A stretch of 64,000 bases of DNA, taken from the IMG/VR virus record IMGVR_UViG_3300042673_002246; one strand, given 5' to 3'. The notes under the pieces are model-generated. The model was given only the letters and a program-made list of their open reading frames with translations. It ran no database searches and had not been told where the DNA came from. The translations under genes were made by a program, and so were the position numbers. Within the stretch, counting starts at the first letter, position 1, and each line of letters starts with the position of its first letter. Source of the stretch: a virus. Positions 5,396-51,354 of this stretch are shown one piece after another.

Positions 5396-8300
5396 TTATG
5401 AAGATTTTTTCTTAGTGTTTTTTATGGGCAATCGTGGCTGTCCTTCATCGCCTGACTCAAAAGCAAGTAGGGCCTTTCTGAACCGTTCAATTGTTTCCCT
5501 AGTAATTGTTTGGCCGCCATCGCCGCCGGTATCAATAAAGGCAGGACTCAGGTCATCTGCCCCAGACTCGAGCAACTCCCACAGAACGTTCAGGTTGGTT
5601 ACGGCTTTTTGGTTTTCCTGCCCACCCAAATCCCTGGCTCGCGGAAGGAATTGCGCTGTTGGGTAAATATCGGTTACATCAAGATAAAGAGTTCCGTCAT
5701 CCACCCATCCGCCGATAGCGACTCTTTCTGCTCCATCCGATGGGTTGTTGAATACTTCAGGTCCGTGAAAGTCCAGCCATGCAACGAATGTGTCAATAAG
5801 TTCTTCTGTTGGCTCTCCATCCGGAGTGAAGTCTGCAGAAGCTGGAAAAATCATTCCTTTTTTATTTCTTGCTACTGCTATACCATTTTTTATGTCGTCC
5901 ATTGTGTCTAGCTCGACAGTAAAACCGCCTTGGAATCCTTTTTGCAGAGTCTTTCTTGCCAGTAGGCGTTTCTCTGGGGTTTCAGCATATTTGACCTCAA
6001 CCTGTGATGCTATTTGCCGTATCTGCTCTGGAGAGTACTTAACTCTTTTTTTCTTCACAGTAGCTCCAGATGAAAGGCGTGGCGCACTGCTTGAATTTCG
6101 TTCCTGAGATTTTTCTGCCAGATTTCCCCACGGTTCTGTATTGCCGTCAACAAACAGTATTGAATAAACATCTTCACGCAGTTTTTTATTTAGCGCATAT
6201 GTCTTCAACTTATCATTTGGGTGAAGTATCGCAACTACTGCCTCAGCAAATGCTTCAGCTTTATTTGTATTACCGTAAGAAGAGAGCGTCATCGGACTAT
6301 CTGTAACCGAATTTATGTCAACCCCGTCAGAGAATCTGGCCATCATGTCAGGATTCATAATTACATCGTTATACTCGGACGCAACCTGCAGCGCTTGCGC
6401 GTAACGCTTATCCTGAGGGTCACCAGAACCAAAATAATGGCGATTTTTTGGCTTGCCAGCTAGTTCGACGTCTTTTAGTGCTCGGAAATGCAACCAATGT
6501 CCCCACTCATGGGTTATGACTCCAGCTATTGATTTGTCAATAGTGTTATCACGGCTCGTTACGAGTCTCGTCGGGTCCATGGTCACGTTTTCGCGTGCTG
6601 TGTCTAGCGAATTTGATTCCCTGTCGATAATCAGTCTTCGGTTAAAGGATACGGAATTAAGGAATGGAGTTGTCCTGGCGCGAACATATGGGTCTTTTGA
6701 ACCGATTCCGCGAACACTCTTTATTTGTTCAAGTTTTGACGAAACCTGAGGCAAGCTTTCATACGCCCTCGAAGCATCAGCTGTTTGCATGTAGAAAACG
6801 GGAGCACCGTGTGTCTCAAATGCCCACTTTAGTTTTGGATTTGATTCGACAGCTTGCTCAACAGCGTTACGCACAGCTTCAACTGCTTCGGGGGAGAAAT
6901 CTATATCATCCCATGGATTGTTTTTAAAATACTCGTCATGGACGGCGTTGAATTTTTTTACGTATTCTTCAGAGTCTCGTCCTCCTGGCGCAAAATCATC
7001 AATAAGCATTTCAAAGTATTGCTCTTTTGATGTTGGGACGAGCAATTCAGACATTTGTCTTGGAGTCATGCCCTTTAGCCAGTTCGACTTGCTTCTGCGA
7101 ACATTTCCGCCAAGTTCACTTTGGTCTCCGTATTTATATTTTTTCAATTGATGCGCTTTTATATCTGGCTGATTCATTTTGAGTATTGGACGCTCGCCTC
7201 CAGACGAAAGACGGTTAGAGGTTCGTCTATTTTTCCTGCCACCACGCGATAGGAGGCGATTAACCACAGTCCTTGGAGCTGACTGCTGGCTCTTGCGCTT
7301 GATGTCACGCTTCATTAAAATAGTGACGCCTTCTCCGGCTCTAAATAGCTCATCGGCTTCTTCAAAATCAACAAGCTGTTCTGCTGTTGCATTTGTTTTG
7401 AATTTTCCGTTTTTTGATTTTTCGTAGAGCGATGTTATTCTCTTCTTTTCTTCGTCCGTAAACCAGTTTCGTGATGAATCATTTACCGCATTATCTATTA
7501 CTTCTATAAATTTTTGCTGCTCGCCCTGCGACGCCCATGTAAAGCCATTTCTAGCCCAGTGTGTTGCGCCCATATAGTCGCCTTGTTTCCCAGACTGAGC
7601 GGAAGCCAATATTGTTTCTGCATCAATCTCTCTGTAAACAGCCTCGTTTCTGGCGTTGAAAATGCTCGCTATTCCATTGCCTCGAGCTGGGGCACCGACG
7701 GATAGTGAATCATGGACAATTATCTTATTTCTTCCATTGATTACAATTGTTCTGATTGAATCAGCAATTACCAGTTGGCCTTCGTTTTGCCCTTTTTCGA
7801 AGTCCTCCATATCTCCAATTCCGTCCCAACGTTCCCGCCGTGGAATTCCTGCTTGAGTAAGTCGTTTTACCGCGTCCTTGTCTTTTGTTTCAATGGTGAA
7901 TTTCAAGCTCACGCTTGTGGATGGCCGCTTTTTCACGCCTTCCATAATTCCATCGACCCCAAGGGCTTCACTTGCTTCTTCGAATTCTTCTTCGTCCATT
8001 TTCTGTACGACGACGTCTGTCGGTGAAACAACAACATCAAATGTTCTACCAAGATTTATTTTTTCTCCGTTTGTTGCCGTGACTATAACGTCGTTTCTTG
8101 TCGTTATTTCACCAGAAAACATATCTTTCGCTGCTGACTTTATTGATTCTTTGAGGGCTTTTCTTTCTTCGCTATCCGCGAGAACCTCTTCTTCGAATAC
8201 ATCGTATTCAATACCCTGAATTTTCTGAAATGAGGAATATCTTGGGTCATCTTTGGTAATCCACTCATCTTCTTTTTGGAGTTCGTCATTCAGCATCAGC

Positions 8301-11300
8301 GCAGAGAAACTCTCTACTCCTGCTCGCTGTTCGTTTGATAGGTAATTTTCCTCACTTACGACTGAATCGTAAATTTTACCTGAAGACAAACCGCGTATTT
8401 CATTAATTCTTTCCAACAAGCGATTATCTTCATTGATGTCATATTCTTCTGCAAGAATTTTACGAATTTTTCGTGCGTAGTTGTATCTCCTTCTAAATAA
8501 AGCACGAAGTTGTTTATCTTTTTCTTCATCACTTCTTCTAAGTGAGTTCGTACTAATATCCCGTATTGAGTCATATGCCAAAATAGGATTGTGAACTTCT
8601 ATTTCATAAGAATAAGTTGTACGCGTATTGCCATCTCTGTCTTTGACTTCTTTTTGTATATCCCTGAGTACGTATCCAAATTCTTTAATTGAATCATCAT
8701 CGCTAATCGCTTGAAATAAAATCCCACTGTCAGGTTTGAGTGAGGTCTCAATCCGCCCGCCATCATATTCAACTGCAGCTTTTGGAAGTTTGAATGTTTT
8801 TGGCTGAATTGCTCCGTCTTGCCCAGATGACAAGGAGTTGCGTTTATCTGGGTCATAACCCCACTCGAGCCATGAGTCACCGTTGGTGTAGATGTCTTTT
8901 GCTTTGACGCGTTTTTTGATTATTTCATAGTCCCCACGAAGAACTCCCTCACCGTGCTCAACTGCATACTGTCGTACGGGGGTCACCCAGTCACCTGGAT
9001 TTATTGATACAAGCTCAGATTCTTCCTGATTGCGTAGAGCATCTAGCTCAGATGCAAGTTTGTCGTAATAGTCGCTGTGATGGAGGTTTGTTGATACACC
9101 ACGAGGTACCCGACCATATTGGAGAATGTATTTCTGCTGTTTTTCGAGTCTTAGTATTTGCTCATCCCTCGATATCGGAACAGCCCTATACACGGTCACA
9201 TCGGCATTCGGTTTATTTCTGAAACGACGAACCACATCTACTGCGGCTGCGTCAAAACTGTCATTACCCGTTCCGTAGTAGCGGATACTTGAGGAGGAAT
9301 AAACATCATCTGGGTAAACACCAGTCAAATTGTGAAGTGGTGCTCCAGAATCTGCATCTGGGGCCATATGCATTCCTCTGTAGTCGCCATCATCTCCAGA
9401 TGAAAGACGGCGATACTCAGCGACATCTTGTTCGAATTTATCTACCGCTGCTGCAAATTTTGCATTATTTGAATTGAACTTTGCATCCCTTTTGTCTTTG
9501 TCCAAAACGTCAGTTGACCAACCATTAATGATGGCTCCATCGATAATCGCCGACATGACAAGACCGGTTGCTTCAGCATCTGCATCTGCCGTATGGTGTT
9601 TTTCACCTAAATCAACATTGAGGTATTTGGTTATGGCGGCAAGTCCATTGGACGGCTTCTTGTTCCCGTCTGCATCAAGAACGAATGGGCCGTCGTCTGT
9701 TTCTGGCGTCCAACGAGGAAGGGCCATATCTGAAATTTCTTTAGTGTCTAGGTAGCCCTTGGGTCTCCATGTAATGCCTGATTGAGATAGTGCCAGTTCG
9801 AGGACGTCTTTGTCAAATGATGCGTTTTGTACGCCGAATATTGCATCATCTCCAGCAAACTCGGCAAGTCGTTCATGTGCCTTTTTGATAGATGTTTGGG
9901 TTTTTAACCACTCATCTGTCAGCGGATTGCCATCTATGTCCTTGAGGTTCGCGCGAGACCATTCACCAAGAGATTCTTCTGGGTCCATGAAAATATTGAT
10001 GCTGTCAATTATTTTTCCGTCTTTCATCTTCACAGCACCAAACTGTGTTGGTTGGCCATTGGAAGAAGGTTTGCGGAATTCATCAAATACCAGACCAGTC
10101 GTCTCGTAATCAAAGAAAATTATTTCTCGATTTTTGTACTTGTCCTTAAATTCCTGCCATGTTTTAGCATCGCCAAATTCTTGCTCTGCTCCGCCAATAA
10201 AAGCACCGTATGTTGGTTTTCTAGGATAAGAAGGCCTGTCTGAGCCGCTAGACAAACGCTTTGAGTAGTCAATCGGTTCGTTTATGTCAGCTAGAAGCTC
10301 ATCAATGTCTACATATCCCCTTTCATCATGCATTTTGACAATTCTTGGAGTCATCGCAAACAATATGTCGTCATAATCAGTCTGGCTGAAACCCTGAGGC
10401 TTCGAGAGTCCGGCAATCGGCTTGTTTTTTCCTAGTACTTGCCACTCCCCACCAGGACCAAGGATGTCGGTAATGTCATGACCCCATTTTCCTACACCAA
10501 ACCATGATGTGCCTCTACGATGTCGTGCTGTTGCTAAATCCTGCAACCATAATGTGCGTATTTCCTTTATCATCGAGGAAAAGGCTTCAGTTGGATATCT
10601 GTCGAGATATCCAGAATATTTTGTAGCAGCTTGATACAGACCAGAGTGAGTAGACATAAAGTTCTTGTCATCACCAAGTGCAGCCAATACCGACTGCATC
10701 TCTGATGCTGCTTTTTCTTCGACTCCTAGATTTAACTCGACCTCACTGATAATCCCGTCAAGATTAAATGCATTGCCTTTTCTGGCATTTATGTCAGATA
10801 TTCTCAGGCTGTCACCAACTTCCCAGCCTTTTGTAAATTTATCGTCAGAAGCAAATGCCACGTACGGACTACCAATGATGTTCGCAATAGCTCTAACTTC
10901 GTCTTGATTCTCAATTACTGAAGACTCATCATTTGCGCGAAGCTTTTGCAATAATGAGCGATATGCTTTGACTTTGACTGACGTTGAAGCAAAATCACGG
11001 CGTAAATTTCGTGACTGTGTCTCATTTAGCTCGCGTGTATTACCTAGTATCTGTCCAGAGCCAATTCCTCCACCTTTTGTGCGTTCAGGTATGAATATTC
11101 CATCATCTAGTTCTGCTACTCCATGATGAATAAAGTACGCGTTAGTTGGTGTTGGTGAAATAAAAAGGTTATCTTGTTCTTGCTGACTCAGAGACCTTAT
11201 CGAATCAGCTTCGCTTTTAAGAACTGCAATTTTTTCTTTTGGTATTTCTTCAACATCTAGAACATTTTGTTCATCTCGTATTTTTTTGCGATTTTCTTCA

Positions 11301-12013
11301 AATTCTTGAATTCGTAGGCTTTCTTCAGCAAGATAAAGTTTTTCTTTTGCTTCCGTAACCCTACTTGACAGGGCTTTTTTAATTTCGCTTTCCCGTTGCG
11401 CAGGGTCGTTAATGTTTCTACTATCGAGGTCTTGCTCGATGAGTGCTACGTGTTCTTCACGTGTTTGATTTGCTGGATTTATTCCAGGTTTATCAATATC
11501 GATGGTGTCGACTGGCTCGTTGCTTCTTGAATTACCGCTAAGAACGACACCGTTATCTTTTCCTGTCCAATTCCCGGACCGCTCTAATTCGGCAATTGCA
11601 GCCCTTAGCCCTTCAACTCTTTTACGAGCCACAGCAACTCTTTCTTCTACTGGGCTGGTTTGTTCTGTTGTGTTTGCCTGCCCAGAAGAGAGTCGCACGG
11701 CTTGTCGAACCGCCTGGGTTTCATCGTTTGTGCCTATAAACCTTGGACGCGTTGTGCCCTCATCGACCCACCCGTCTGCATCCGGGTCGAAATTACTGCC
11801 GGTTGGTTTTCTGCTTCCTGGCACCCCTCCTGTTGGAACATCAATGTCTCCACGACGACGCCTACGTCCGCCTCCAACATTTGGCCTATCAATAAGACGA
11901 CTGCCCACATACGAGGCAAGGCGACGACCAATGGCCTTGGTTTCCTGCTCTAGCTCTCTACCTTTTCGGGAAAGCTCAAACGGAATCTCAAATTCCTCAT
12001 CTGCGTTAGACAT
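5396..12013 (-). CDS. Giant polyvalent protein A (2205 aa): leader, unknown module, DEDDh exonuclease, ART-like, unknown, GNAT, zincin and C-terminal module, separated by 7 LSSG linkers
   Basis: Long ORF; FFDYETTG...QNASFD...HTADAD (DEDDh); VYRAVP...INPGDWVT...EWG; RGNGIAS...WARNGF (GNAT); HEWGH...EAFAE (zincin). Confidence 0.85.
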   Translation of the reverse strand: MSNADEEFEIPFELSRKGRELEQETKAIGRRLASYVGSRLIDRPNVGGGRRRRRGDIDVPTGGVPGSRKPTGSNFDPDADGWVDEGTTRPRFIGTNDETQAVRQAVRLSSGQANTTEQTSPVEERVAVARKRVEGLRAAIAELERSGNWTGKDNGVVLSGNSRSNEPVDTIDIDKPGINPANQTREEHVALIEQDLDSRNINDPAQRESEIKKALSSRVTEAKEKLYLAEESLRIQEFEENRKKIRDEQNVLDVEEIPKEKIAVLKSEADSIRSLSQQEQDNLFISPTPTNAYFIHHGVAELDDGIFIPERTKGGGIGSGQILGNTRELNETQSRNLRRDFASTSVKVKAYRSLLQKLRANDESSVIENQDEVRAIANIIGSPYVAFASDDKFTKGWEVGDSLRISDINARKGNAFNLDGIISEVELNLGVEEKAASEMQSVLAALGDDKNFMSTHSGLYQAATKYSGYLDRYPTEAFSSMIKEIRTLWLQDLATARHRRGTSWFGVGKWGHDITDILGPGGEWQVLGKNKPIAGLSKPQGFSQTDYDDILFAMTPRIVKMHDERGYVDIDELLADINEPIDYSKRLSSGSDRPSYPRKPTYGAFIGGAEQEFGDAKTWQEFKDKYKNREIIFFDYETTGLVFDEFRKPSSNGQPTQFGAVKMKDGKIIDSINIFMDPEESLGEWSRANLKDIDGNPLTDEWLKTQTSIKKAHERLAEFAGDDAIFGVQNASFDKDVLELALSQSGITWRPKGYLDTKEISDMALPRWTPETDDGPFVLDADGNKKPSNGLAAITKYLNVDLGEKHHTADADAEATGLVMSAIIDGAIINGWSTDVLDKDKRDAKFNSNNAKFAAAVDKFEQDVAEYRRLSSGDDGDYRGMHMAPDADSGAPLHNLTGVYPDDVYSSSSIRYYGTGNDSFDAAAVDVVRRFRNKPNADVTVYRAVPISRDEQILRLEKQQKYILQYGRVPRGVSTNLHHSDYYDKLASELDALRNQEESELVSINPGDWVTPVRQYAVEHGEGVLRGDYEIIKKRVKAKDIYTNGDSWLEWGYDPDKRNSLSSGQDGAIQPKTFKLPKAAVEYDGGRIETSLKPDSGILFQAISDDDSIKEFGYVLRDIQKEVKDRDGNTRTTYSYEIEVHNPILAYDSIRDISTNSLRRSDEEKDKQLRALFRRRYNYARKIRKILAEEYDINEDNRLLERINEIRGLSSGKIYDSVVSEENYLSNEQRAGVESFSALMLNDELQKEDEWITKDDPRYSSFQKIQGIEYDVFEEEVLADSEERKALKESIKSAAKDMFSGEITTRNDVIVTATNGEKINLGRTFDVVVSPTDVVVQKMDEEEFEEASEALGVDGIMEGVKKRPSTSVSLKFTIETKDKDAVKRLTQAGIPRRERWDGIGDMEDFEKGQNEGQLVIADSIRTIVINGRNKIIVHDSLSVGAPARGNGIASIFNARNEAVYREIDAETILASAQSGKQGDYMGATHWARNGFTWASQGEQQKFIEVIDNAVNDSSRNWFTDEEKKRITSLYEKSKNGKFKTNATAEQLVDFEEADELFRAGEGVTILMKRDIKRKSQQSAPRTVVNRLLSRGGRKNRRTSNRLSSGGERPILKMNQPDIKAHQLKKYKYGDQSELGGNVRRSKSNWLKGMTPRQMSELLVPTSKEQYFEMLIDDFAPGGRDSEEYVKKFNAVHDEYFKNNPWDDIDFSPEAVEAVRNAVEQAVESNPKLKWAFETHGAPVFYMQTADASRAYESLPQVSSKLEQIKSVRGIGSKDPYVRARTTPFLNSVSFNRRLIIDRESNSLDTARENVTMDPTRLVTSRDNTIDKSIAGVITHEWGHWLHFRALKDVELAGKPKNRHYFGSGDPQDKRYAQALQVASEYNDVIMNPDMMARFSDGVDINSVTDSPMTLSSYGNTNKAEAFAEAVVAILHPNDKLKTYALNKKLREDVYSILFVDGNTEPWGNLAEKSQERNSSSAPRLSSGATVKKKRVKYSPEQIRQIASQVEVKYAETPEKRLLARKTLQKGFQGGFTVELDTMDDIKNGIAVARNKKGMIFPASADFTPDGEPTEELIDTFVAWLDFHGPEVFNNPSDGAERVAIGGWVDDGTLYLDVTDIYPTAQFLPRARDLGGQENQKAVTNLNVLWELLESGADDLSPAFIDTGGDGGQTITRETIERFRKALLAFESGDEGQPRLPIKNTKKKSS
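9410..10243 (-). other. DnaQ-like DEDDh 3'-5' exonuclease module within protein A
   Basis: Exo I DYETTG, Exo II NASFD, Exo III HTADAD, bounded on both sides by RLSSG. Confidence 0.85.
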
Positions 12014-14846: not shown

Positions 14847-14850
14847 TTGG

Positions 14851-39300: not shown

Positions 39301-40707
39301 TTTGTACAGATGCAAAGCTGTTTCAAAATATGCTCGCTCTGTTTCGTAATATCTCTTAATGTCAGCTTCAATTAAGCGCTCTTGTTCTGGCTTGGTCAGC
39401 GCTTTCCAGTTAGCCACCTTCTGCAGGCGGGCTGTTATGTACCTGCGAACCTCGTCTGGTCTCATTCTGGACATATCGCCCATTCCAGAAACATTCGATA
39501 CGTTTAGGTCCCAACCATCTCTGCCGCCCGTTGCGACGAACAGCTCATTTAGCTTTTCTACTGCCTCGAATACGTCGGCATTTACTGCTCGTGCAGCATC
39601 GCTTCTGTCAACACCCAATTCGCTATACAGTTGCGAAACGCTTTCATCGAACTTGATAGCCGCATCCTGGGCATTTATCAGTCCGTTTCTAAAAAGTCGC
39701 TGACCTGGCTCAACGTCAACCGTACGCCAATCTGGGGAATCTAGTCTTTCTCCAGTTATCTCGTCGTAATACGGGCTTCTTGCCATTCTGACCGGAGCCC
39801 ACGGAACATTTGAATCCCACTCATTGTTTTTTATAAAGTTAAGTAGTGTTCTTACTCCGTTTGTAAAACCACCAAGCTCCCCTGATTCCTGCATCTCTTT
39901 TGCCTTACGCGCAGCAAAGCGAGAGAATCTCGACGCGCTAAAACCAAAACAGTTGGTTCCGAACATGTCCGTAAATTGGTTTGCAGCAGGGGTTCCCGGA
40001 GGGCATCTGAATTTGTTTAGCTCGTCACGGACTACGCCGAATCGAGCAGCAGCTCGCGCAATGAGATTTCCACCAGGAACACGAGAAGAGAGAGGTCTGC
40101 CAGGGAGGCGTTTTTTTTCTAGTCCGTTTTCTTTTTCTGTTAGTTCACGTAGTTTGGCTCGTCGCTCATCGAATGACATGCCTGCAGTAATAGAGAATCC
40201 ATCTATTTCTTCTGCCGATTCCTGGATTACATCATCTGTTTTTGCATTTACTTTAAATTTTGTAAGTTTTATTTGCGGTTTGCGATTAAGCTCAAAAAGC
40301 ATTTCGTCGAGATTTTTGAAATTCCCAGTTGTCGGCTCAATCCACCCAATGTTTGGCATGGTGTCCATGCCATTTTTGCTTTCGTATGATGGACTAAGTA
40401 CAAACCTTTTTCCTGGCTCCCACTTCGCTGCAGTTTCCCATCTGTGACCAAATTCGTCGGACTGAACGCCAGGTCTAGTGTCTCCAGTGAATTCACGTTT
40501 CTTATTGTCGGTATCTTCGTATGTTTGGCGATTTTCGCCAAGAGCTTTTACTGCGATATCGGCAATAAGTCTTTCCTGTTTGGCTGATTCAATAACTGAA
40601 GCCTTGAAAGTAAGAGCCTTTTTATCAACGTCACCAATAGTGCGCGCAGGCGCCAGCATGCGACGCGATACAACTACTCGTTCCTTGTCGGTGAAATCAC
40701 CCGTCAT
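33331..40707 (-). CDS. Giant polyvalent protein B (2458 aa): RCP motif, zincin, degenerate VIP2-like ART, ParB/Srx-like and DUF3626-like modules
   Basis: RCPPGTPAANQFTD; HEFSH...EVGAE; ILDGHHRWA; RPVSGYL...FGDIEVVLK...GDSL...EAQILGG; three [LF]SSG linkers. Confidence 0.8.
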   Translation of the reverse strand: MTGDFTDKERVVVSRRMLAPARTIGDVDKKALTFKASVIESAKQERLIADIAVKALGENRQTYEDTDNKKREFTGDTRPGVQSDEFGHRWETAAKWEPGKRFVLSPSYESKNGMDTMPNIGWIEPTTGNFKNLDEMLFELNRKPQIKLTKFKVNAKTDDVIQESAEEIDGFSITAGMSFDERRAKLRELTEKENGLEKKRLPGRPLSSRVPGGNLIARAAARFGVVRDELNKFRCPPGTPAANQFTDMFGTNCFGFSASRFSRFAARKAKEMQESGELGGFTNGVRTLLNFIKNNEWDSNVPWAPVRMARSPYYDEITGERLDSPDWRTVDVEPGQRLFRNGLINAQDAAIKFDESVSQLYSELGVDRSDAARAVNADVFEAVEKLNELFVATGGRDGWDLNVSNVSGMGDMSRMRPDEVRRYITARLQKVANWKALTKPEQERLIEADIKRYYETERAYFETALHLYKTKPGTAKFFDRIEYNFFTNDEAGTAVHGSMRPGAGGIRGVMHVNLERIMTNQESMLPDMRADERLAVSAVGVVSDSEAKSAVADFLINSEYAARHMAGLVDGPRSFTKHIAFHEFSHGIQSQAFIQKILRKAIDNGGKIEIPQYKQDKRTGAMTFVGNRIVTVDFDEERGGLLTNLTSGDVMDLMMDSNDGLDLKNMSDALKRSEVAAFLAGKYPTEYTEGSEIWGLEVGAELHALREQGLIFGDDVDAALEWMDDVERSRLSAERADIDAEERAILESTTFRPTSSSSADRLSDEEIDEMSGDIEKRTIEERREKLKEFKKFYSELDEEEMFQQAALVDAQRRDIRAQLDNFTNELNGLSELPEDATEESITERTEKVADLSKKIEEGQKILDYYEKMYSDSRSEWRKKFGVGAKGEASRFDRVVEKTRRDAGMVDDEEIKAFAKAKRIDDITSSAKTKSENQLIRRAADIDVLVKDRLEDDPEVQELMEERSILRSEYISRIAESGDSRATARAGREFNGKVDELLKPKPKKIKKFKSQKEAIDNAKREKARLRRKITKEQAAAIREMDDFVAPEIAQMLTPEKQTVVGRAMNARNARLNRLGLAVDPRRKDEGSLSEQVRNILIPTMEAIDSSSIDSPFEFEVVSDFPAVEVKGKKVGDEINVDNFISGRVLTSRSKPTSSPRGTDKETGRVKRKIIISVAEGNRGVFPNAEKDDEQKFVAPPGKLRIISRDKDGTIRAEIVRQKDTVDVLDALVDGISSGTDDAIWRQGNSKKIREVADKEIIRRSKLGISRPDSTERESADIDETSAEIIDSVADFGSTFGEAPSRRLSSGSTHFGPTLSREERRSSRRKQLSSDMRELRSILNGNGSKEYDDIASDMLDSNVAEALRRYSDEQIAQLIENAAFKMHSSFDRRVRVRMRDEDISSLSENGVVRSGGVRPGAPSTSRRTERLSRMAPNDRRGRLSSGRISSVEELESRAKLEDEVAAKAADIFDKVVAGGKNVDDMTTDEISKVFGKSLVRSTRKAISANHRNTYIAEDVPTALALMSLGHHVIVKDADLTLTASAQAKLEKAVQKSALTHIEQNNERWLNFKKAYEADVLSNNPGIDISSKDFVNKMKKDYVDSYQADLCGLYDAMQNLLCSGHIGIDREKMPQTNGRTKGANTIAIRMLKNGKADGKWEPASGLSTEDSERYASLKKRHPMKNKPSSNPMSEDELNWFYSNTDWNNTEVNLEGEFIQFLNETLTPEDPSTGPSVRKKTVPANEYAPSQQQLVASKVSGMADGITKKALEIADQLEQEGLDRKSDEFRRRFLEEINKQWFSSPILATMDKYILDGHHRWAGINVANLGLGDELQVPLNVNEVQTDIVEGLTLGRAFQEVYGIKEARLGAENAWQKGDIAEISDSEIAKVAEDLKTNISDMADELYERGDFIKVGAVGYTARPDYKKAVTTRQSLRSNRRIVLPDDSDEITGRAAARRTWFSSGRDMTSAANRARNDRNANARAVSALTKAGVEKSERGDMVQAIAAMSVFGNGGTSEDIAKVANQIAAAGNQDLALVAVRELQRSGAIDKNTAMRAMEKLGDYSGPRKPVSNRKKLQNSFADGFRAFMKNVSETRNNNRTRGVLSRTRRQVLTGKMSDGDTDATSSQRIGMSAINFAKDYQSSIGLSSDIPNELRPVSGYLVHNSYKKAKQNQVLQNNSGNIDMDANFEIMDEDIVGDGLTAFGDIEVVLKPNVSNRVAYGKGDSLSTGHRPVALNSMNRDDIVDAYIGGSSPGSRSRNLVSTLNLLGAGMSDDFSSVNSGRDRDGKFPTPGSLGQGVDRDVFEAQILGGFDKDEVEKINYPFSRLSENSGKEDISDVVNNRSIAERLRSAGFSQEEIEYFYSINSGSKMNTQSMQKLRNYRAAKKIQDEYKKLGFDNVGIAHPEGINLFDARSYSAAAKRSDDIETVLREKIMREIAENAKKLLEEMRKEKSPSLVTRSGAML

Positions 40708-42489: not shown

Positions 42490-45400
42490 CTATTCTTTTG
42501 TTCCTGATTTGCCGAACATGGTTCGACCTTCTTCTTGAAGTCTCTTACGTGCGTTTTCTAATTGCTCTTTACTGAAAATGTCCTCAATTGTGTGGCTTGT
42601 GCCAAATATTTCATTGAAACGATTGACCACATCCTGAAGCTCGTTGGATGAGTATCTTGGCTCATCACCCTTAATCTTGCTGAAAGTCTTGCCGCGTGTT
42701 TTTGCTGCATTGTTTAGAAGAACGGAAAGATTGCTCGTACCAAGGATGTATTCCTTATTTCTCTTGGTGTTTCCACCAGAACCCTTCTGGGTGTTTGATA
42801 TGAACTCAACCATCGCCTCGGCAACATTTGCCTTGCTTGCGCGAAGTTCACCGTCAAGCTTTTGACCATTTTCTGGCCAAACGCTTTCCGCATTCTCAAT
42901 CATCCCTGTCCGAATCATCTCCTGGATTGCTGCAACTGGCACTCCGTCACTTTCCCATGACTTCCTGTCTTTCGGATTGGTCAAACCGACATCATCCATC
43001 CCGAATGACCGCTTCATTCTTTCTCTTAGCTGAGCCATCCATTCGTCTCTGTCAAGACCAAGATTTTCGATGAGATTATCCAACTTGAAATCTCTTCTTG
43101 ATGTCTTTGCGCCAGCTGGGTTTGTTTCATTGACCGTCGGTGCTGGTGCTTCTGGAACAAAGTCTGGCATTCCCTCGTAAATAAGGTCAGCCTCGGCAGA
43201 AGCTTCGCCATCAGCGTCTTCTGGGTTTGGCGTAAATCTTCCAGTTGCCCTAAATTTTGCCACTGGGTCGACTTCTCCAAGAGTGGAGTATTCATCTGAA
43301 GAAATGATTTGATTTTCTTCCCTGTCGGCCCAGAACGGATATGCGTCTTTCCCAAATGTTTCAATGATGAATCTGTCGCGCATATTGGCTCTACCGAGAT
43401 TTTCGGCAAAACGTTGAGCTGACGACATCTTCTCCACGCCCGGCTCGTCTGAAGTTACTGGCGAGAACAATCTCCATCCACCAAATTCAGGTCTATTGCC
43501 GAGTTCTGCAACGAGGAATCTGACGGCATTGTGGGATATTCCAGAATCATCATCAGAAATCCTCTTTGCATCCTCTGGCGATAAATTTAGCAATCTTGAA
43601 AGGTCGGTGTTGGAAATTGGTTCCGACTTGGTCCACTTTACATCAGCAATTGTGTTGTCTGGATTTCTGACAACATCAAACTCAGTTGGAATTCTGATTG
43701 ATTCCTTCAGGCTCTTTACTGGAAGCATCCATGTATCTGCATCTGGATTCGAAAGATTTTCATTCCCAGATACGCGACCGATAGTTACTTGTGGTCGACG
43801 CTTCATTGCGGCGGCAGCCTTATCCAGGCCCTCATTTATCTGTCGTCTGCGCTCTTTTACTGTTCCGGACTTACTTGACGTATCTAGCGTTATTCCGCGT
43901 TTTCTAAAACCATCCCAGAATCTTCTGGCAAACGCGAATGACTCTCCAGTCTTTGAGCCTCTAATTGCAGCAAGATTTGTAGCATTGATATTGTCCGCAT
44001 AAGTGGACCCGCTACTCATTCTTCGTGCTTTTCTGTCAGCGCGATTTGAACTGTTTACTGAACGTGGCCCACCAACTGCTGCTGTCCGTTCTGGCGCTTG
44101 GACTCCTGGCGTTTCTGGTGCTGAGGTTTCTGTAGTGGCCTGTCGCTCAACATCTCCGCCACGAAGTCTTGCTCGTCTTGCCGACCTGTTGGTCCCAGTT
44201 CCTGGAACTGCTGTTTCAGGTACGCTATTTACGCGACCGCTTGAAAGTATCTCTCTTGCGCCATCAGGGAATACTTGCTCACCATCTCCAAATGGGTTCC
44301 AAAATCCAGAAGGAGCCTGCTGCTCCTCGGTTAGGAACTTTTCAATATATTCAAAACCCTTTGGATTTTTCTTTGGGTCGATAATCCATGACGTTGCCTC
44401 AGACAACTGAATGCGCTTTTTTGCGCGAGTCATCATGACGTAAATAAGGTTTTCCATTTCACGACTTATGTCATTCCCTGGAAGTATCGAACCATCGTCT
44501 TCAAACTTTGGCTGGAAGAAATCGTCTCCGGCAACCACGTTGTCGAATTCCAAACCTTTGGCTGCGTGTGTTGTTAAGAACGATGCATCAACTTCTGGCT
44601 CGTTTGCTGAGTCAGTTATCATTCTTCCAACAAGGCTGAGGAGCAATCCAGTCTCTTCTGGATTATCTCCCTTTATTCTTACAGCGTCATATGCTGGTGC
44701 ATTCGATGAGCCAGCCTTACGTGGTACGTACTGCTTTTCTATTGTGACTTTTCCTTCCAGATTGAGGTCTTTAATCATTTTCTCAATCCGGCGTCGCATC
44801 ATAGGCTTTTCGCCGTTCTTGTCACCTGTGTACTGAATTTTTCCTGCTGCGTCCCTGAACTGGTAGACATCAATTATTCCTTCACCGGAAATAATTACTC
44901 CATTCTCCCATTTCCCATCTGCACCAAGACTTTCGGTATCCAGTTTCCAGAAAACTTCTCTGCTTGGTGTCTGGCCGGTTGGGTTCGGGATGATGTTAAA
45001 TCGCTTATCACGATTCATCTTGTACGCACCCTTGGCTCCACCGCCGCCTTTACCTGCTTTTTGTTTTCCGAGAGCAATTAGTTCCTCACCAGAAACCGTC
45101 GAAGAACTTCCATCTATATTCTTGAATGGGTCAACATCGAGTGGTTCTTCTATTTCTCGTATTCTTGCTCTAGTTAAGACCTCGCCAGTTTGTGGGTCCC
45201 TTCGACCTAGCAATCTGTTTAGCCAGTCAAGTGGGGAAAGTTGATTTCCTTCTGCGTCTCGAACCTGCAAAAGCTTGAGCATTGAACCCAGTTGACCATA
45301 GGATGATTTTTGACCTGCGCGTTTTCTGATTTCCTCCATTGTCCACGCATTGCCAATAATCTTTGATTCGCGTGGTCGTGTCCCAACAGGACGGAGGACA

Positions 45401-48400
45401 AACTGATAGTGGCGTAGGAATTCAACCATGTCTCTGTATTTTTCGGCAGGCAATCCAACGATTTTGTCTGGATGCGCTCCGATGAATTCCAAGGCAGCTG
45501 TAAGGGTGTTTTTGTTTGAATAAGAAATATATGCCCACGTACCATCTGCGCTTGTTGGTATCTGACGGTAGAGGATTCCTTCCGATTCTGGAACGATGTA
45601 ACCACGAGCCTTGTCCAGTAGCTCATTTCTCTCTTTTTCTGGCATATCTGCCAGTGACTGTCCGTCTGGACCAGAAATTCCGTATTTCTTTTGTATTGAA
45701 TCAAGTTTCTTACGCAAATCATTTCCGGTGAGTGTTCCAAGATTGAAGTCATGAGAAACCACATCCTGAAGTCGGCCAAACAACTTGTAGTCCGCAGAAA
45801 CCTCATCAATCCCATTCTGCCTGTCGGTCATGTTTCCACGACCAAGCATCAAGTTTCCAAGGAACGCAACTGTCTTTCCGTATCTGAATGAGTCAGTCAA
45901 CGTCAAGTTGAAATCTGGATTGAGTCGAGCGAATGAGTCAGATGAACCACGGAATCCATAAATTGATTGCCGTGGGTCACCGACCATGACTATTGCAAGA
46001 TTATTATTCGCAATATTGTCTTCAATCACCTTTTGGAGAACTGGGTTTACGTCCTGAGCTTCGTCAAAGAAGAAAGTCGAAATGGGCTTATCTTCCGTTG
46101 CATATCGGCGACGCAATCCGGCGCGTGCTCCACCACCTGTGTAGACATAATCCACACCATCAACTTGGACTATTGAGCCTGGGTCAAGTTTTTTGTCCTG
46201 TGCTCTTGCATCTTTCACTTTTCTTGTGCCGTGACCAACCATTCCAGCGTCTGTACGCAGATTTGGTTTTTGCATAGCCCAAATCTTTACTTGCTGGTCG
46301 TAGTTGGGCAGCACATTGCTCTTCGGGTCGAGCGTGTCAGACCACATTTTGAGTGCTAGGTCAACCCACTCTTGTGGTATCTGGTCGAATGCTGTTTCGG
46401 CAGGGTCGATTGGGTCGCCAGACTCGGCAAGTTGCTTATTTCTTTCAATTTCGTGTGGACGAAGCTTGAAATGTTTTTCACTAAGCGCATCATCATCACT
46501 CTGTGAATAACGAGTAAGGGCGTTGATGAGAACAAGACCATAATCGTCAGCAGTCAGCTCCACCCCTTCGTGGGTAAGTCCGTCTGGGTATTTCGTGCCG
46601 AAATCGTAGTGTCTCGCTACGTCGCGACCACCGCTTTCTGTTTCAAACGAAACGTATCCCAAAGTTCTGAATCCAGCTTTTTTCAATCCTGTTGTATCGA
46701 CAGTTTTTCCACCATATCCCTCTGCAGACGTTTGTCTTGTTGATTTAGGGTTTGCTGATGAGTAGTACTCGTTGCCGGCGCCAATGCCTATCTTTTTTAG
46801 TTTCTCTTTGAACTCTGGAGAAATTCCTGGCCTGTCTTCGAGCAATAGGGACCAGTATGCCAATTGGTTAATCGAAGAGCTTCCTGTGTTGTCAGGCATT
46901 CTACGTGCTGCTTCTGCAGCATTTTTCTTATTGAATGTTATGTAATAAAACTGTGACTCCGGAGATTCCTTGGCCATACGAATAACAGATTGTTCAACTG
47001 TGGTGGTTTTACCTGCTCCGGCTCCTGCGCGAACAGCAGCCAATCCACCTTCACCAGTTTTTGTGAAGTGTGCAACTGTGTCCATAACGTCTTTTTGTTC
47101 ATCAGTCGGCTCAAACTTCATTCCAAACATTTCCATGAACGAACCCTCAGTTCGCTCAATCTTGCGCTTAGGGTCCTTGGCGCCAACAATTGGTCCGCGG
47201 CCAGAAGAAAGACGCTTGTTAATTTGGTTATACGTGTTGCCTTCTTCGTCCTTGATAACGAATCCGGTTATGCCGCTTGAAAGACGATTATTCTCGTAGT
47301 CCTCAAGGATAGTTTTTACTGCAGATGGACCTTGTCCACGAACACGCACGCGTTGACGTACTTTGTTTTCTGGTGTTGGTGTGCCGACAACTGGCTTTTT
47401 CTTTGGAATTGGGATAGTGATTCGACCAACGATTGGCGCTTCAATTGTGTAGTCTTCTTTACCCTTGCGTTCGCTGTCTGGAACACCAGCGCGCTTGCGC
47501 AGCGTTGCTGACTTATTCATAATGTAGTCAACAGCCTGCTGTCCGCCTTCAATTGCACGACGGATTGAGCTTGGGTCGTCCTGCAGTGCTTTGCGCCAGA
47601 ACGCTAGGTACTGAATATGGTCTTCGCGTATTTGAGGCTCTACACCGAGGAATCCCATCGCAAATGAAGCACCGATTTCTGCGATGAGTTCTTCAAATGC
47701 GTATTTCTTTCTCTGTTCTGGGGTGCCCTTCATTCTGCCGCTTAGGTCCCTCTTTAGTCGCGATGGATGGGCTGTCCAGTGAATAATTTCATGCAGAACT
47801 GTTCCATAGAAAGCAATTGGTTCAATAAAGTTCTCAAATGGAGGAACATTTATCGTGTCGTCGTTTGGGTCGTAGAATGCGCTGACTCCCTGTTCCTTGT
47901 ATCTAGGACCAATTTCTTTGATTACATTTTCAATGTCTTCAAGTCGTTGTGCCGCATCAAGTTTTTCTGTTTCTTTGACTTCGTAGACCCATGCTGGCAG
48001 TCCGTCCATTTGGTCGGCGTTGAATACTGTTTCAATTTTGAAACCCTTTTCACCAGTACGAATTCCGTCATCATTTTTTATGTCAAACGGAACGAGGATA
48101 TTGACACCAAGTTCTCCTGGTTTTGGTTTTGCTTTCTTATTCAACTCACGCCACTGCGAACGTCCAGCCCAACGATTTGTTTTGTATTTGCGCTTTGATG
48201 CGACCTGGGAAAGAATCAATTGATTCATGCCTTGATAAATACGATTTCTTCTTGTTGGATTTCGACCGTACAACTCTGGCGAGCGCCAAGGCACTTGCCA
48301 CTGGCCAGCTTTGCTTGGGTCCTTTAATATCTCATCAAGCGCAGCAATAATTGCTTCACCCATTTGCTGGTACATGTCTTTAATACGAGCTGCATCTGCT

Positions 48401-51354
48401 TCTTGATTTTCATCTTTTCCAGATGACAGTGTCTGGCCATCCCTGTATTCCCAGAGTGGTCCTAAGTAGTCTTGCTTTTCACGACGAGTGCGCTTGTTTT
48501 CTGGCTTTTTTAGGAAATTCTCAAATCCACTAGAAAGTCTTGGCGCGCTCTCGGCAGCACGCGATGCACTGCCTCTTCGAATCTCGGACATGTATCTTTG
48601 TTCTGCCTGGCGCACCTCCGTTCTTGTTACACCAAGTTTTTTGGCCATATCCTCAATGGATACGCCATTCATACGCTCTTCGTAAATATCCTGGTCTGTA
48701 TAGTCTTCTGGGTTCTTTTCTGGTGGAGCGATTTTCCCTCGTTTTGGACGTGGCATTTCTTCGCCGAGGAAATCTCTAATAATTCTGTCGTATGTATCAG
48801 TTCCGCTCTCATCGAATGGAAGGTTGTCGTCGCCGTAGGGATTATCTGGGTCGAAATCGTCATCGAGCGCAGGAAGTCTTCCGGATGAGAGTTTTCTATC
48901 TGGCTTGTTTGGGCTTGCACCGTCGAACCCATATGAGTTCATCCAGCGAGCAAGAGCCTCTTTATCGTTTGGGTCCCATGTTCCAGTTGACGGGCGACGC
49001 TCATAGACTTCGCTGCGTAGCGCACTATCAAGTCCTTTAAGAAACTGGCTCTCGCCGTCTTCGCCAACATAATTTTTATTCTTGTCCTTTTTGTCTTTTC
49101 CAGCAAAATACTTATTTGTTGCATCGAGGTATGTGCCTAGTGTGCGAACAAAATCGTAATACCACTCTTGATACGCCTGTCCGCTCTTTGCTTTTTCGTT
49201 GAATTTTGCTGGGCGCTTCTTATCGTCGCCTTGCCATGCTCTTCTTGCTTGGTTGTACCCAAGCTCGCGCCCTCTTAAGAACTCTGCGGAACGTGTATTG
49301 TCTGTTTGGTAGCGAGGCACTTCTTCCCAGCCGAAGCCCTTATCAACCCATTCCTGTGCAGTCTTGTCAAATGCTTCTCGTCTTGCCTGTTCATCTGGTG
49401 CGACACCAAACTTACTCTCGGTTTCTTTTCCAAGACCGTGACGTGAAGTATTAAATCGTGAGCGTTTCTCAGCTCCAGAAGAGAAGGGTTTTGACGGTGT
49501 TGCCGGTTTTGCATCTTGCACGCCGACGAAGCGGGGTCGTGTTGTTCCTTCATCTACCCAGCCATCGTTGTCGGGGTCGAAGTCGCTCCCCGTTGGTCGT
49601 CGATTTCCTGGTGTTCCGCCGGTTGGCATGTCAATGTCGCCACGGCGATTTCTTCTGTCTCGACGGCCACCGATTGATGGTCTGTCAATGAGTCTGCTGC
49701 CAACGTAGCTTCCTAGTCTTCGGCCAATCGCTTTTGACTCAAACTCAGAGCTATCTAGAAATTTTTTTTTTATGTTTTCCAGAGCGTTATCGACTGCTTC
49801 AATAAAATCTAAACTAACCCCGGATTTGAGAACGATTCCATCAATATCCACTTCTGCATCAACCATGTAGTAATCGAGAATTGGGTCAATTTCTTGCTTG
49901 ACACGGAACGCGTCATTTGGGTGAAGCGGAATGCAGTATTGCTCATCGAATGAGTTGTCATCTTTGCCAAATTCAGAAAGTGATTTAAATTTGCTACGCT
50001 TCTTTTTTCTCCTACCTACCGCTCCGCGAAGCATGGCCATGACAAACTCGCCAGGGTACTTAACTTCTAGGTCTTCAATAGCTTCATCGAAATTTGCGTC
50101 TTCTTCAATTTCGTATTCTTTTTTAGCAATTCCATCGACATTGACAACGCCTTTTGGAATTACTGCAAAACGACATTTGCCTTCTGGTTCGATGTCCATA
50201 TCAACAATCTTGCATGACCCATCATTTTGGAAGAACACGCAATTTGCACACTTGACCCCGATTGATGCGATGGGATTTTCTGAAGCCGGTTTATATCCAG
50301 CCCACACACCATCTTTGTCTTCGTTGAACTTGCCGTGGCGTTTTACAATTTTTAGCAAAGCGTCACGCAGGTCCGCTTCCTCTTTATCGAGGTTGTTCTT
50401 ATCTATTGGCTTGTTATTGCCCTCTTCGTACTGAACTGCAGGGAGCGGAACAACAACAACACCCTCCATGCCTGGCTTGACAGCTATTGGCATTGATGGC
50501 ATCTGCTGTGGGCGGACCATTCTTCTTGGCTCATTTGGCGGAACCATCATTGGTGCTGTTTGTGGTGCGGACGGTCTCTGCATCACTATTTCTTCTGGCG
50601 GGCCGAACATCATTCGACCACCCGTTCGACTCCAGCCACACTTGAATCTCTTAACTGAACCGTCAGCCACACGACGAGCAAATGTCAGATTTTCGTCGTC
50701 CATTTCCATGAGCGATATTTTTGCGCCAAGCATTCCTGAGAGTTGCTTTTCAATTTCCAACTTGTTCGGCTTTTCATCATCCATCATCATGACGGAGCTA
50801 TCTTCGCCGTATGGGTCATCTGTCTTCACGGAAATTGTGCCAGTCAGTTGATTGGCTCCATGAAGAACTGGAGACACTTCATAAAGCTCCAACTCGTAAA
50901 TTACGTTTGCCTGAGACTTTTGGTCATACTGTGCGCGCAGGGTTTTATATCCAATCGACCATTCTTGTTCTTCTCCAAAGAAAGCAACCATCGTGAAAGC
51001 TTCGCGGCCCTTTTCTGACTGAAGATTAAATTGAACTTTTGCAAATAATCCGCCGATTCCAGCAATCTTCATTTTTAGTGGTAGGCGTGGGTCAGACGGT
51101 GGCACCTCGTAAATTTCGAGTACTTTGCCGATTGGGTCATTCCAGTTATGGCCCCACACAACACGCGGCTTGCGGCGCTGAAGACTCTTCGTAAAAGCAC
51201 CACTTGCGCAAATATCACCAACAGAGTCTTTATTGCCGATTCCAGCTACAAAGCACTCAACAATTCCTTGCATCTCATCGAGATTGACGGAGCCGGCTTT
51301 CTGTGAAGCGGAGCCAAGGGATGTCGACTTGTATTCAAAGTGGTCAGTGGTCAT
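42490..51354 (-). CDS. Giant protein C (2954 aa): HK97-type prohead protease fused to HiPIP-like motif, shared leader, ArdC-like antirestriction module and UvrD-like SF1 helicase
   Basis: GNKDSVGD...WGHNW..PIG...WSIGY...LYEVSPVLHGAN (protease); YQGMN, LHEIIHWT, YAFEELIAEIGA (ArdC); AGAGAGKTT, DEAQD, VGDPRQSIYGFRG, SFRYG, THAAKGLEFD, YVMMTRAK (UvrD); 8 xSSG linkers. Confidence 0.9.
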   Translation of the reverse strand: MTTDHFEYKSTSLGSASQKAGSVNLDEMQGIVECFVAGIGNKDSVGDICASGAFTKSLQRRKPRVVWGHNWNDPIGKVLEIYEVPPSDPRLPLKMKIAGIGGLFAKVQFNLQSEKGREAFTMVAFFGEEQEWSIGYKTLRAQYDQKSQANVIYELELYEVSPVLHGANQLTGTISVKTDDPYGEDSSVMMMDDEKPNKLEIEKQLSGMLGAKISLMEMDDENLTFARRVADGSVKRFKCGWSRTGGRMMFGPPEEIVMQRPSAPQTAPMMVPPNEPRRMVRPQQMPSMPIAVKPGMEGVVVVPLPAVQYEEGNNKPIDKNNLDKEEADLRDALLKIVKRHGKFNEDKDGVWAGYKPASENPIASIGVKCANCVFFQNDGSCKIVDMDIEPEGKCRFAVIPKGVVNVDGIAKKEYEIEEDANFDEAIEDLEVKYPGEFVMAMLRGAVGRRKKKRSKFKSLSEFGKDDNSFDEQYCIPLHPNDAFRVKQEIDPILDYYMVDAEVDIDGIVLKSGVSLDFIEAVDNALENIKKKFLDSSEFESKAIGRRLGSYVGSRLIDRPSIGGRRDRRNRRGDIDMPTGGTPGNRRPTGSDFDPDNDGWVDEGTTRPRFVGVQDAKPATPSKPFSSGAEKRSRFNTSRHGLGKETESKFGVAPDEQARREAFDKTAQEWVDKGFGWEEVPRYQTDNTRSAEFLRGRELGYNQARRAWQGDDKKRPAKFNEKAKSGQAYQEWYYDFVRTLGTYLDATNKYFAGKDKKDKNKNYVGEDGESQFLKGLDSALRSEVYERRPSTGTWDPNDKEALARWMNSYGFDGASPNKPDRKLSSGRLPALDDDFDPDNPYGDDNLPFDESGTDTYDRIIRDFLGEEMPRPKRGKIAPPEKNPEDYTDQDIYEERMNGVSIEDMAKKLGVTRTEVRQAEQRYMSEIRRGSASRAAESAPRLSSGFENFLKKPENKRTRREKQDYLGPLWEYRDGQTLSSGKDENQEADAARIKDMYQQMGEAIIAALDEILKDPSKAGQWQVPWRSPELYGRNPTRRNRIYQGMNQLILSQVASKRKYKTNRWAGRSQWRELNKKAKPKPGELGVNILVPFDIKNDDGIRTGEKGFKIETVFNADQMDGLPAWVYEVKETEKLDAAQRLEDIENVIKEIGPRYKEQGVSAFYDPNDDTINVPPFENFIEPIAFYGTVLHEIIHWTAHPSRLKRDLSGRMKGTPEQRKKYAFEELIAEIGASFAMGFLGVEPQIREDHIQYLAFWRKALQDDPSSIRRAIEGGQQAVDYIMNKSATLRKRAGVPDSERKGKEDYTIEAPIVGRITIPIPKKKPVVGTPTPENKVRQRVRVRGQGPSAVKTILEDYENNRLSSGITGFVIKDEEGNTYNQINKRLSSGRGPIVGAKDPKRKIERTEGSFMEMFGMKFEPTDEQKDVMDTVAHFTKTGEGGLAAVRAGAGAGKTTTVEQSVIRMAKESPESQFYYITFNKKNAAEAARRMPDNTGSSSINQLAYWSLLLEDRPGISPEFKEKLKKIGIGAGNEYYSSANPKSTRQTSAEGYGGKTVDTTGLKKAGFRTLGYVSFETESGGRDVARHYDFGTKYPDGLTHEGVELTADDYGLVLINALTRYSQSDDDALSEKHFKLRPHEIERNKQLAESGDPIDPAETAFDQIPQEWVDLALKMWSDTLDPKSNVLPNYDQQVKIWAMQKPNLRTDAGMVGHGTRKVKDARAQDKKLDPGSIVQVDGVDYVYTGGGARAGLRRRYATEDKPISTFFFDEAQDVNPVLQKVIEDNIANNNLAIVMVGDPRQSIYGFRGSSDSFARLNPDFNLTLTDSFRYGKTVAFLGNLMLGRGNMTDRQNGIDEVSADYKLFGRLQDVVSHDFNLGTLTGNDLRKKLDSIQKKYGISGPDGQSLADMPEKERNELLDKARGYIVPESEGILYRQIPTSADGTWAYISYSNKNTLTAALEFIGAHPDKIVGLPAEKYRDMVEFLRHYQFVLRPVGTRPRESKIIGNAWTMEEIRKRAGQKSSYGQLGSMLKLLQVRDAEGNQLSPLDWLNRLLGRRDPQTGEVLTRARIREIEEPLDVDPFKNIDGSSSTVSGEELIALGKQKAGKGGGGAKGAYKMNRDKRFNIIPNPTGQTPSREVFWKLDTESLGADGKWENGVIISGEGIIDVYQFRDAAGKIQYTGDKNGEKPMMRRRIEKMIKDLNLEGKVTIEKQYVPRKAGSSNAPAYDAVRIKGDNPEETGLLLSLVGRMITDSANEPEVDASFLTTHAAKGLEFDNVVAGDDFFQPKFEDDGSILPGNDISREMENLIYVMMTRAKKRIQLSEATSWIIDPKKNPKGFEYIEKFLTEEQQAPSGFWNPFGDGEQVFPDGAREILSSGRVNSVPETAVPGTGTNRSARRARLRGGDVERQATTETSAPETPGVQAPERTAAVGGPRSVNSSNRADRKARRMSSGSTYADNINATNLAAIRGSKTGESFAFARRFWDGFRKRGITLDTSSKSGTVKERRRQINEGLDKAAAAMKRRPQVTIGRVSGNENLSNPDADTWMLPVKSLKESIRIPTEFDVVRNPDNTIADVKWTKSEPISNTDLSRLLNLSPEDAKRISDDDSGISHNAVRFLVAELGNRPEFGGWRLFSPVTSDEPGVEKMSSAQRFAENLGRANMRDRFIIETFGKDAYPFWADREENQIISSDEYSTLGEVDPVAKFRATGRFTPNPEDADGEASAEADLIYEGMPDFVPEAPAPTVNETNPAGAKTSRRDFKLDNLIENLGLDRDEWMAQLRERMKRSFGMDDVGLTNPKDRKSWESDGVPVAAIQEMIRTGMIENAESVWPENGQKLDGELRASKANVAEAMVEFISNTQKGSGGNTKRNKEYILGTSNLSVLLNNAAKTRGKTFSKIKGDEPRYSSNELQDVVNRFNEIFGTSHTIEDIFSKEQLENARKRLQEEGRTMFGKSGTKE
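44251..47199 (-). other. UvrD/Rep-like helicase module in protein C
   Basis: Major SF1 motifs present, bounded by RLSSG and ILSSG. Confidence 0.9.
47287..48417 (-). other. ArdC-like ssDNA-binding/zincin antirestriction module in protein C
   Basis: W..PW...N...Y.G.N, VFNADQ, HEIIH, EELIAE; bounded by TLSSG and RLSSG. Confidence 0.88.

Follow-up and report, generated by a model that had tools for sequence, protein, structure and literature searches.

A lineage-specific junction peptide at the domain borders of giant phage proteins, a probable cleavage code for a multi-effector polyprotein system

Three giant proteins of an uncultured, myovirus-type phage are punctuated by a short peptide, x-[LFM]-S-S-G, which most often reads RLSSG. 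The proteins, called A, B, and C here, are encoded in the 64,000-nucleotide stretch of IMG/VR virus record IMGVR_UViG_3300042673_002246 that was analyzed (the window), which is part of a single virus contig of 133,891 bp. The comparisons presented below support the view that this peptide is conserved as a signal at the protein level and is placed at domain borders, and its copies are probably the cleavage sites of a polyprotein.

All 18 copies of the motif that a preliminary description of this DNA had reported, seven in A, eight in C, and three in B, were recovered in place (Table 1); 10 of them read RLSSG and 15 contain LSSG. The motif is also, as described there, not a DNA repeat. Leucine is encoded by CTC, TTG, CTT, or CTG, serine by TCN or AGY, and glycine by all four of its codons, and these differences among the copies rule out a DNA-level repeat or recombination site. 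On the basis of composition, 0.41 copies of [LFM]SSG are expected in the 7,617 amino acids (aa) of A, B, and C, and no shuffle among 2,000 exceeded 4. The other 156 open reading frames (ORFs; 33,896 aa) contain 4 copies, so that the motif is strongly enriched in the giants (Fisher P = 1.9e-10, odds ratio 20). A position-specific scoring matrix (PSSM) derived from the sites of homologs placed the 18 sites above everything else genome-wide, all with scores of at least 12.0. The same scan found no good site in the major capsid protein (MCP), in the 246- and 247-aa head-module ORFs that are scaffold candidates, or in C 1-623, and the best match in the portal protein scored 7.0. Two near-threshold matches lie outside the window, MFSSGA at residue 48 of a 266-aa protein (98988-99788 in window coordinates) and SFSSGE at residue 117 of a 403-aa protein (79538-80749). 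A nineteenth SSG, GISSG at B1230 (37009-37023), is present in 2 of 38 homologs and was rejected as a site.

The sites lie in linkers. In AlphaFold models covering C 600-1450 and C 2240-2954, six of the eight C sites are within or at the edge of stretches with a predicted local distance difference test (pLDDT) score below 50, and C976 and C1382 are in coil just ahead of the ArdC-N and UvrD domains, respectively. When B was aligned with its homologs, LSSG or FSSG at 1302 and 1437 was the sole conserved element of long, indel-rich segments that are otherwise unalignable. The 24 residues flanking conserved sites are only 15 to 40% identical between homologs, and across the giant-protein family the hydrophobic content falls from 0.28 to ∼0.1 next to the sites. 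Twin sites surround spacers of 24 and 36 aa.

The preliminary description held that each effector module is bracketed by a pair of sites. This is true of the exonuclease (A 587/870), ArdC-N with its MPTase (C 976/1358), UvrD (C 1382/2370), and the HEWGH zincin of A (A 1602/1980), but not of the HEFSH zincin of B, which lies in the site-free N-terminal 1301 aa with no pair around it. Several of the module names given earlier also found no backing in profile searches. Pfam and PDB profile searches with A 871-1060 (labeled ART-like) and A 1210-1601 (labeled GNAT) were empty, and the ESM Atlas leads for them were weak (ART, 0.76; GNAT, 0.88), leaving both labels unconfirmed. The same applies to the ParB label in B, where an invariant DGHHR resembles a ParB/Srx signature and the region has no Pfam hit; B as a whole has no Pfam or PHROG match. 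The effector modules identified by Pfam are only ArdC-N/MPTase, UvrD, and the DEDDh exonuclease. Several unrelated effector-type domains are combined in a single chain, S78, ArdC-N, MPTase-PolyVal (PF18818, C 1140-1267), and UvrD in C and RNase_T with further modules in A. The ∼500-aa C-terminal domain of C folds confidently (AlphaFold pLDDT of ∼90), and a Foldseek search with it against the PDB gave no match at an E value of ≤0.001.

The motif also marks the ends of exchangeable units. For A, 67% of the ends of BLAST high-scoring segment pairs (HSPs) are no more than 15 aa from a site versus 10% at random, and for C the corresponding values are 36% and 6%. The order and position of modules A 588-870, 871-1060, and 1210-1601 vary among homologs. 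The exonuclease cassette of A (588-870) recurs in P0117, a homolog of C (C-type protein), at residues 3137 to 3416 with 59% identity and with motifs at 3136 and 3418, and one close relative is missing precisely the module that runs from site 1061 to site 1209. Reordering, transfer between protein types, and exact site-to-site deletion thus bear out the earlier proposal that domains are swapped as cassettes, with the motif forming the cassette ends. In C-type proteins, the N-terminal part, from the protease to the leader, and the ∼500-aa C-terminal domain are constant, and the cargo between them is variable. The leader-like module of ∼80 aa, with the core DxDxDG..EGT, is shared by A and C at 69 to 71% identity, and 41 C-type homologs also have it. 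A weak echo of this core (DHDSDGMIFDGT) occurs in the 471-aa DUF6321 protein adjoining the MCP (25635-27050), and L086, a relative, has its S78 protein fused to DUF6321. Between the S78 domain and the leader, at C 368-395 (50170-50253), is a conserved zinc-ribbon-like cluster of four Cys; one clade has a junction site, V-LSSG-S at residue ∼408, directly after this cluster.

Searches of related contigs for the same linker with different cargo recovered the motif in more than 200 homologs. The 211 homologous giant proteins, all of them metagenomic and their genomes represented by fragments, contain 1,763 copies of [LFM][SA]SG, compared to 72.8 expected, with up to 22 per protein and a median intersite distance of 157 aa. 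Within one contig, all giants share one peptide, and this peptide differs between lineages in what we call dialects. It is GLASG(G) in the C-type and B-type giants of L083, GSKSTT in both giants of L084 (in which S78 is a separate 468-aa gene), GMRS in the three giants of L085 (6, 4, and 8 copies), SGKMS in L086, with one copy in its separate 797-aa S78 protein, and GL[RKA]S in the giants of G001. The dialects have G-x-x-S or [LM]-x-S in common; the serine is kept in every one, and many have a basic residue nearby. Phages related closely enough to have portal proteins 60 to 73% and S78 domains 76 to 86% identical use very different peptides. On the substrate side, then, lineage-specific dialects are common to all substrates of a genome. 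Since the unrelated carriers of a contig switch dialect together, this pattern points to one trans-acting reader per genome.

The code is not limited to the three head-associated proteins, as the preliminary description had assumed. A 1570-aa protein encoded on the plus strand outside the window (69359-74071 in window coordinates; L087:3818-8530) follows the sheath, tube, and a chaperone-sized ORF and has a weak M15 peptidase match at its C terminus; its position and size suggest that it is the tape measure. It contains RRFASGR at residue 36 and SRLASGG/KGLASGL at residues 570 and 589. Among ten relatives of this protein, a site near residue 36 is present in six, and all ten have at least one copy between residues 568 and 603, at a shifting position inside a low-complexity stretch. 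The residue preceding the tape-measure motif agrees with the dialect that the contig's C-type protein uses: R[FLM][AS]SG is found in RLSSG lineages and [SA]L[SA]SG in SLSSG lineages. Among the five other dialects, the tape-measure comparison covered the GL[RKA]S lineage, in which this protein has GLAS at 597. Conserved, dialect-following sites are thus found beyond the head.

Dialects of this kind might arise if a host protease cuts the motif and the peptide follows different hosts. Staphylococcus Prp, for example, processes both capsid and scaffold proteins in phage 80alpha. A cytoplasmic enzyme could reach the giants and the tape measure alike, and no phage protease has so far been tied to the code. 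The very different peptides of the close relatives described above are, however, hard to square with a conserved host enzyme, and cutting in the producing cell would part the cargo from its leader before packaging. We regard a host protease as very unlikely.

The motif is most economically read as a protease recognition site, and its copies are taken here as probable cleavage sites because there is one copy per domain border, twin copies surround spacers, cassettes end precisely at the motif, the carriers include proteases of their own, and the dialects are genome specific. The same features bear on the alternative that the motif is left uncut and serves as a docking or modification site, with its serine phosphorylated or glycosylated, or as a chaperone or threading handle for ejection through the tail. 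A retained serine with a nearby basic residue would suit modification, disordered segments commonly host modification sites, and exactly those proteins that are expected to be ejected, the tape measure among them, are marked; cleavage, moreover, is itself deduced. Yet one copy per border, twin copies 24 to 36 aa apart, cassette ends that match the motif to the residue, and proteases in the same proteins all speak against an uncut motif, and a generic hinge would need no concerted genome-wide change of dialect. An uncut motif is considered unlikely.

If the motif is cut, [RKSG]-[LFM]-[SA]-S-G would act as a genome-wide junction code, placed in disordered linkers of A, B, and C and in two places in the putative tape measure, and one phage-encoded endopeptidase would read this code in trans and cut the chains into domain-sized products. 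We tentatively propose that this reader is a zincin metallopeptidase carried by the giants, and the best candidate is the HEFSH domain that B has in its site-free N-terminal core of 1301 aa. On this view, the main role of the S78 part of C would be that of a capsid-loading anchor. A, B, and C have one HExxH each, and nearly every A- and B-type homolog has exactly one. The B zincin is only 20 to 33% identical between dialects, and its core is conserved and without sites. In contrast, S78 shows no difference across five dialects (LSSG, GLASG, GSKSTT, SGKMS, and GLRS) in the segments that surround H69, S133, and H165. A zincin is favored over S78 because the active-site segments of S78 are unchanged across dialects and because the MCP, scaffold candidates, and portal have no good site. 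Processing of polyvalent proteins by zincins has been predicted (Iyer et al. 2017, PMC5512222). Cutting would probably not be confined to prohead maturation, because all of the marked proteins are expected to leave the virion with the DNA. It may instead take place after ejection by a codelivered protease, which would make the tape measure reachable. Delivery of the giants by the virion and their anti-defense roles are likewise presumed here.

The preliminary description had named the prohead protease as a reader. The S78 HK97-type protease, N-terminal in C here and the product of a gene immediately upstream in other lineages, would, on this alternative, cut the giants during or after head assembly in the manner of T4 gp21 or SPN3US gp245. 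S78 is fused to the largest substrate in ∼120 homologs, and in L084 and L086 it is encoded next to that substrate. The catalytic His and Ser of S78 are intact, H69, S133, and H165 being invariant across 48 homologs, and the 623-aa protease-scaffold part of C is site free. The separate 797-aa protease protein of L086 has the lineage motif (GRMS-T) at residue 534, and the leader of A (residues 1 to 108) ends at a site, which is reminiscent of the T4 capsid-targeting sequence. Given the pattern that all dialects share, a constant small P1 could suit an unchanged S1 pocket. A small P1 together with a hydrophobic P3 would also recall assemblin cleavage at V/L-x-A↓S. SPN3US gp245, which recognizes a motif in the nine head proteins that it cuts, is a strong experimental precedent (PMC10052503). 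Against this stand the active-site segments, which are the same in all five lineages compared; the lack of a good site in the portal, MCP, and scaffold candidates, even though head-assembly proteins are obligatory substrates of a head protease; and the conserved, dialect-following sites in the tape measure, which is not in the prohead. We consider S78 the reader with rather less conviction than a zincin, and on balance unlikely. A complex prediction of the S78 domain with C 1340-1400, which contains two sites, scored 0.00 and gave no answer, and it is evidence neither way. In one clade of C-type homologs (P0054-P0064), V-FASG-P is found at residue 186, ∼10 residues past the S78 domain; it could be a self-release site but is a relaxed variant of the clade's KLSSG dialect.

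Several points weigh against cleavage by a zincin of the giants. The zincins of A, B, and C are unrelated to one another, and two of the three are swappable cargo. Twenty of 119 C-type proteins have no HExxH, and 18 of these 20 keep 5 to 12 sites, which excludes cis self-processing by each protein's own zincin and means that only a trans-acting zincin fits. A B-type zincin was looked for in the 2128-aa ORF of L086 and was not found. The faster divergence of the B zincin may reflect a generally faster evolution of B. A packaged zincin would reach the tape measure no more easily than S78 does, unless cutting takes place before assembly or after ejection. All experimentally demonstrated motif-directed processing of packaged phage proteins is by prohead proteases (T4, phiKZ, and SPN3US; PMC10052503). 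Cleavage is inferred, as are the moment at which it would occur, the bond that would be cut, and the protease responsible, and the shared pattern G-x-x-S/[LM]-x-S would fit either a small P1, as for a serine protease, or a hydrophobic P1', as for a zincin; the peptide by itself does not decide between them.

On the minus strand, the gene order is portal, C, a 540-aa acidic protein, B, five ORFs, and the MCP, and TerL is divergent. A is set apart from the other two giants and adjoins a primase. The G+C content is ∼45%. An actinobacterial host is plausible because the MCP shares 46 to 49% identity with its counterparts in Brevibacterium phage Cantare and Gordonia phages. In tblastn searches of cultured phages, A, B, and C gave single-domain matches or nothing, and no cultured relative having these giants was found. 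The 540-aa acidic protein (40725-42347) always lies between the C-type and B-type giants and has an N-terminal Cys cluster (C-x7-C...C-x2-C); no family match was found for it, and its counterparts in L083 to L085 contain DEEE-rich runs and are 494, 609, and 569 aa long. The KGLASGE of the 540-aa protein, at residue 24, is attributed to chance, being within a Cys-rich segment and not conserved among relatives. Auxiliary genes of the window encode a PAPS-reductase-like protein (61594-62736; phrog_2302, 9e-75) and a ribonucleotide reductase (17153-19081; phrog_367, 6e-138).

Table 1. Giant proteins, their modules and motif copies, and head genes, in window coordinates. Sites are named by protein and residue; "kept" gives retention across homologs no more than 85% identical.
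Feature	Coordinates	Strand	Remarks
Protein A	5396..12013	-	2205 aa; leader, 7 sites, 8 modules
Leader-like module of A, residues 22-102	11708..11950	-	followed by site A108
Site A108 RLSSG	11681..11695	-	end of leader
Site A587 RLSSG	10244..10258	-	homology breakpoint
DEDDh (RNase_T) exonuclease, A 632-816	9566..10120	-	Pfam
Site A870 RLSSG	9395..9409	-	homology breakpoint
Site A1061 SLSSG	8822..8836	-	cassette end
Site A1209 GLSSG	8378..8392	-	cassette end
Site A1602 RLSSG	7199..7213	-	listed motif copy
HEWGH zincin motif of A, 1835-1839	6497..6511	-	within module 1603-1979; weak Peptidase_Mx match, E value of 0.014
Site A1980 RLSSG	6065..6079	-	kept 17/17
Major capsid protein	27168..28517	-	no site in PSSM scan; no delta domain detected
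Protein B	33331..40707	-	2458 aa; site-free N-terminal core, then 3 sites
B core, residues 1-1301, without sites	36805..40707	-	zincin motif HEFSH at 582-586 (38950-38964)
Site B1302 RLSSG	36793..36807	-	conserved within indel-rich linker; kept 30/37
Site B1437 RLSSG	36388..36402	-	conserved within indel-rich linker; kept 27/30
DGHHR, B 1808-1812	35272..35286	-	inside 1437-1954 module; invariant in homologs; ParB/Srx-like signature
Site B1954 WFSSG	34837..34851	-	kept 12/12
Protein C	42490..51354	-	2954 aa; S78 protease, site-free 623-aa N-terminal part, 8 sites and cargo
Peptidase_S78 (HK97-type prohead protease), C 31-174	50833..51264	-	Pfam 38 bits versus cutoff of 21; phrog_80, 1e-25
Leader-like module of C, residues 537-619	49498..49746	-	followed by site C624
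Site C624 PFSSG	49474..49488	-	pLDDT <50; kept 56/64
Site C822 KLSSG	48880..48894	-	pLDDT <50; kept 31/35
Site C940 RLSSG	48526..48540	-	beside low-confidence stretch; kept 26/55
Site C976 TLSSG	48418..48432	-	immediately ahead of ArdC-N; S-S-G invariant in 45 sequences; kept 75/75
ArdC-N and MPTase-PolyVal zincin, C 992-1267	47554..48381	-	HEIIH at 1188; Pfam E values of 1.2e-12 and 2.2e-33 (the latter MPTase-PolyVal)
Site C1358 RLSSG	47272..47286	-	twin of C1382 (24-aa spacer); pLDDT <50; kept 10/51
Site C1382 RLSSG	47200..47214	-	ahead of UvrD; kept 48/50
UvrD-type SF1 helicase, C 1413-2319	44398..47118	-	profile matches
Site C2370 ILSSG	44236..44250	-	pLDDT <50
Site C2446 RMSSG	44008..44022	-	pLDDT <50; HSP boundary of conserved C-terminal domain
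C-terminal domain of C, ∼500 aa (C 2455-2954)	42490..43992	-	at very C terminus of most C-type proteins
Portal protein	51461..53527	-	weak near-match RRFSSF at residue 652, PSSM score of 7.0

The giants share with polyvalent proteins (Iyer, Burroughs, Anand, de Souza, and Aravind 2017, PMC5512222) long chains that contain ArdC-N, MPTase zincin, helicase, nuclease, and other conflict domains, and a genomic location beside virion genes; for those proteins, processing by built-in peptidases was predicted. No cleavage motif was given for those proteins. Here, in contrast, a defined peptide is found at every joint, is common to all giants and the tape measure, changes dialect by lineage, and delimits shuffled cassettes. 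In the Stx phage phi24B, which is unrelated, the 2811-aa polyvalent protein gp47, with a metallopeptidase domain, was found in virions by proteomics and proposed to be an ejection protein, with no junction motif or processing reported (bioRxiv 10.64898/2026.04.10.717836).

The second comparison is with T4 internal proteins and Alt with gp21, phiKZ gp175, and SPN3US gp245 (PMC10052503), where one phage protease reads a short consensus in many packaged proteins. The N-terminal propeptides of such substrates are capsid-targeting signals, and the leader common to A and C, with the first site at its end, is similar to them. Those proteases, however, belong to another, T4-type family and cut after Glu. 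Their motif is also found on the MCP, the portal, and the protease itself, and on head proteins only. In this phage, the tape measure bears the code and the MCP and portal do not; the only exception to the lack of sites on head-maturation proteins or the protease itself is the copy in the separate protease protein of L086. The substrates are also multienzyme chains with sites in up to 8 places, and in up to 22 in relatives. The repeated short consensus that delimits products, the protease within the polyprotein, and the spacer peptides between twin sites are shared with polyproteins of RNA viruses and retroviruses (3C, NS3, and PR sites), for which protease-site coevolution is a feature. Unlike those viruses, this is a double-stranded DNA (dsDNA) tailed phage, the cargo is accessory rather than a replication or structural core, and the module content is highly variable. 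No prior description of the motif was found in the searchable literature for LSSG, RLSSG, or polyvalent-protein cleavage, in agreement with the preliminary description. Within the literature searched, polyvalent proteins and protease-processed head cargo are known already, and the junction peptide, its dialects, and the marking of the tape measure are new.

A broader and more doubtful possibility is that this large family of uncultured phages from freshwater runs a polyprotein economy for all of its injected proteins, with swappable cassettes in giant carriers, a lineage-specific peptide code that is also present on the tape measure, a codelivered reader that acts only after ejection into the new host, and diversification of site and reader together. 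If this is true, diversification of the dialects may be an escape from host interference or from cross-cutting by related phages. The concerted dialect changes would be a rare case of protease-site coevolution in a dsDNA phage, and the marking of the tape measure connects the processing of head cargo with that of tail proteins. Iyer et al. left open how polyvalent proteins become active enzymes, and the junction peptide makes this question directly testable. The code is also a practical parser, dividing >200 giants at ∼1,760 sites into domain-sized units with a median of 157 aa, many of no known fold. These units constitute a catalogue of candidate injected effectors and anti-defense proteins.

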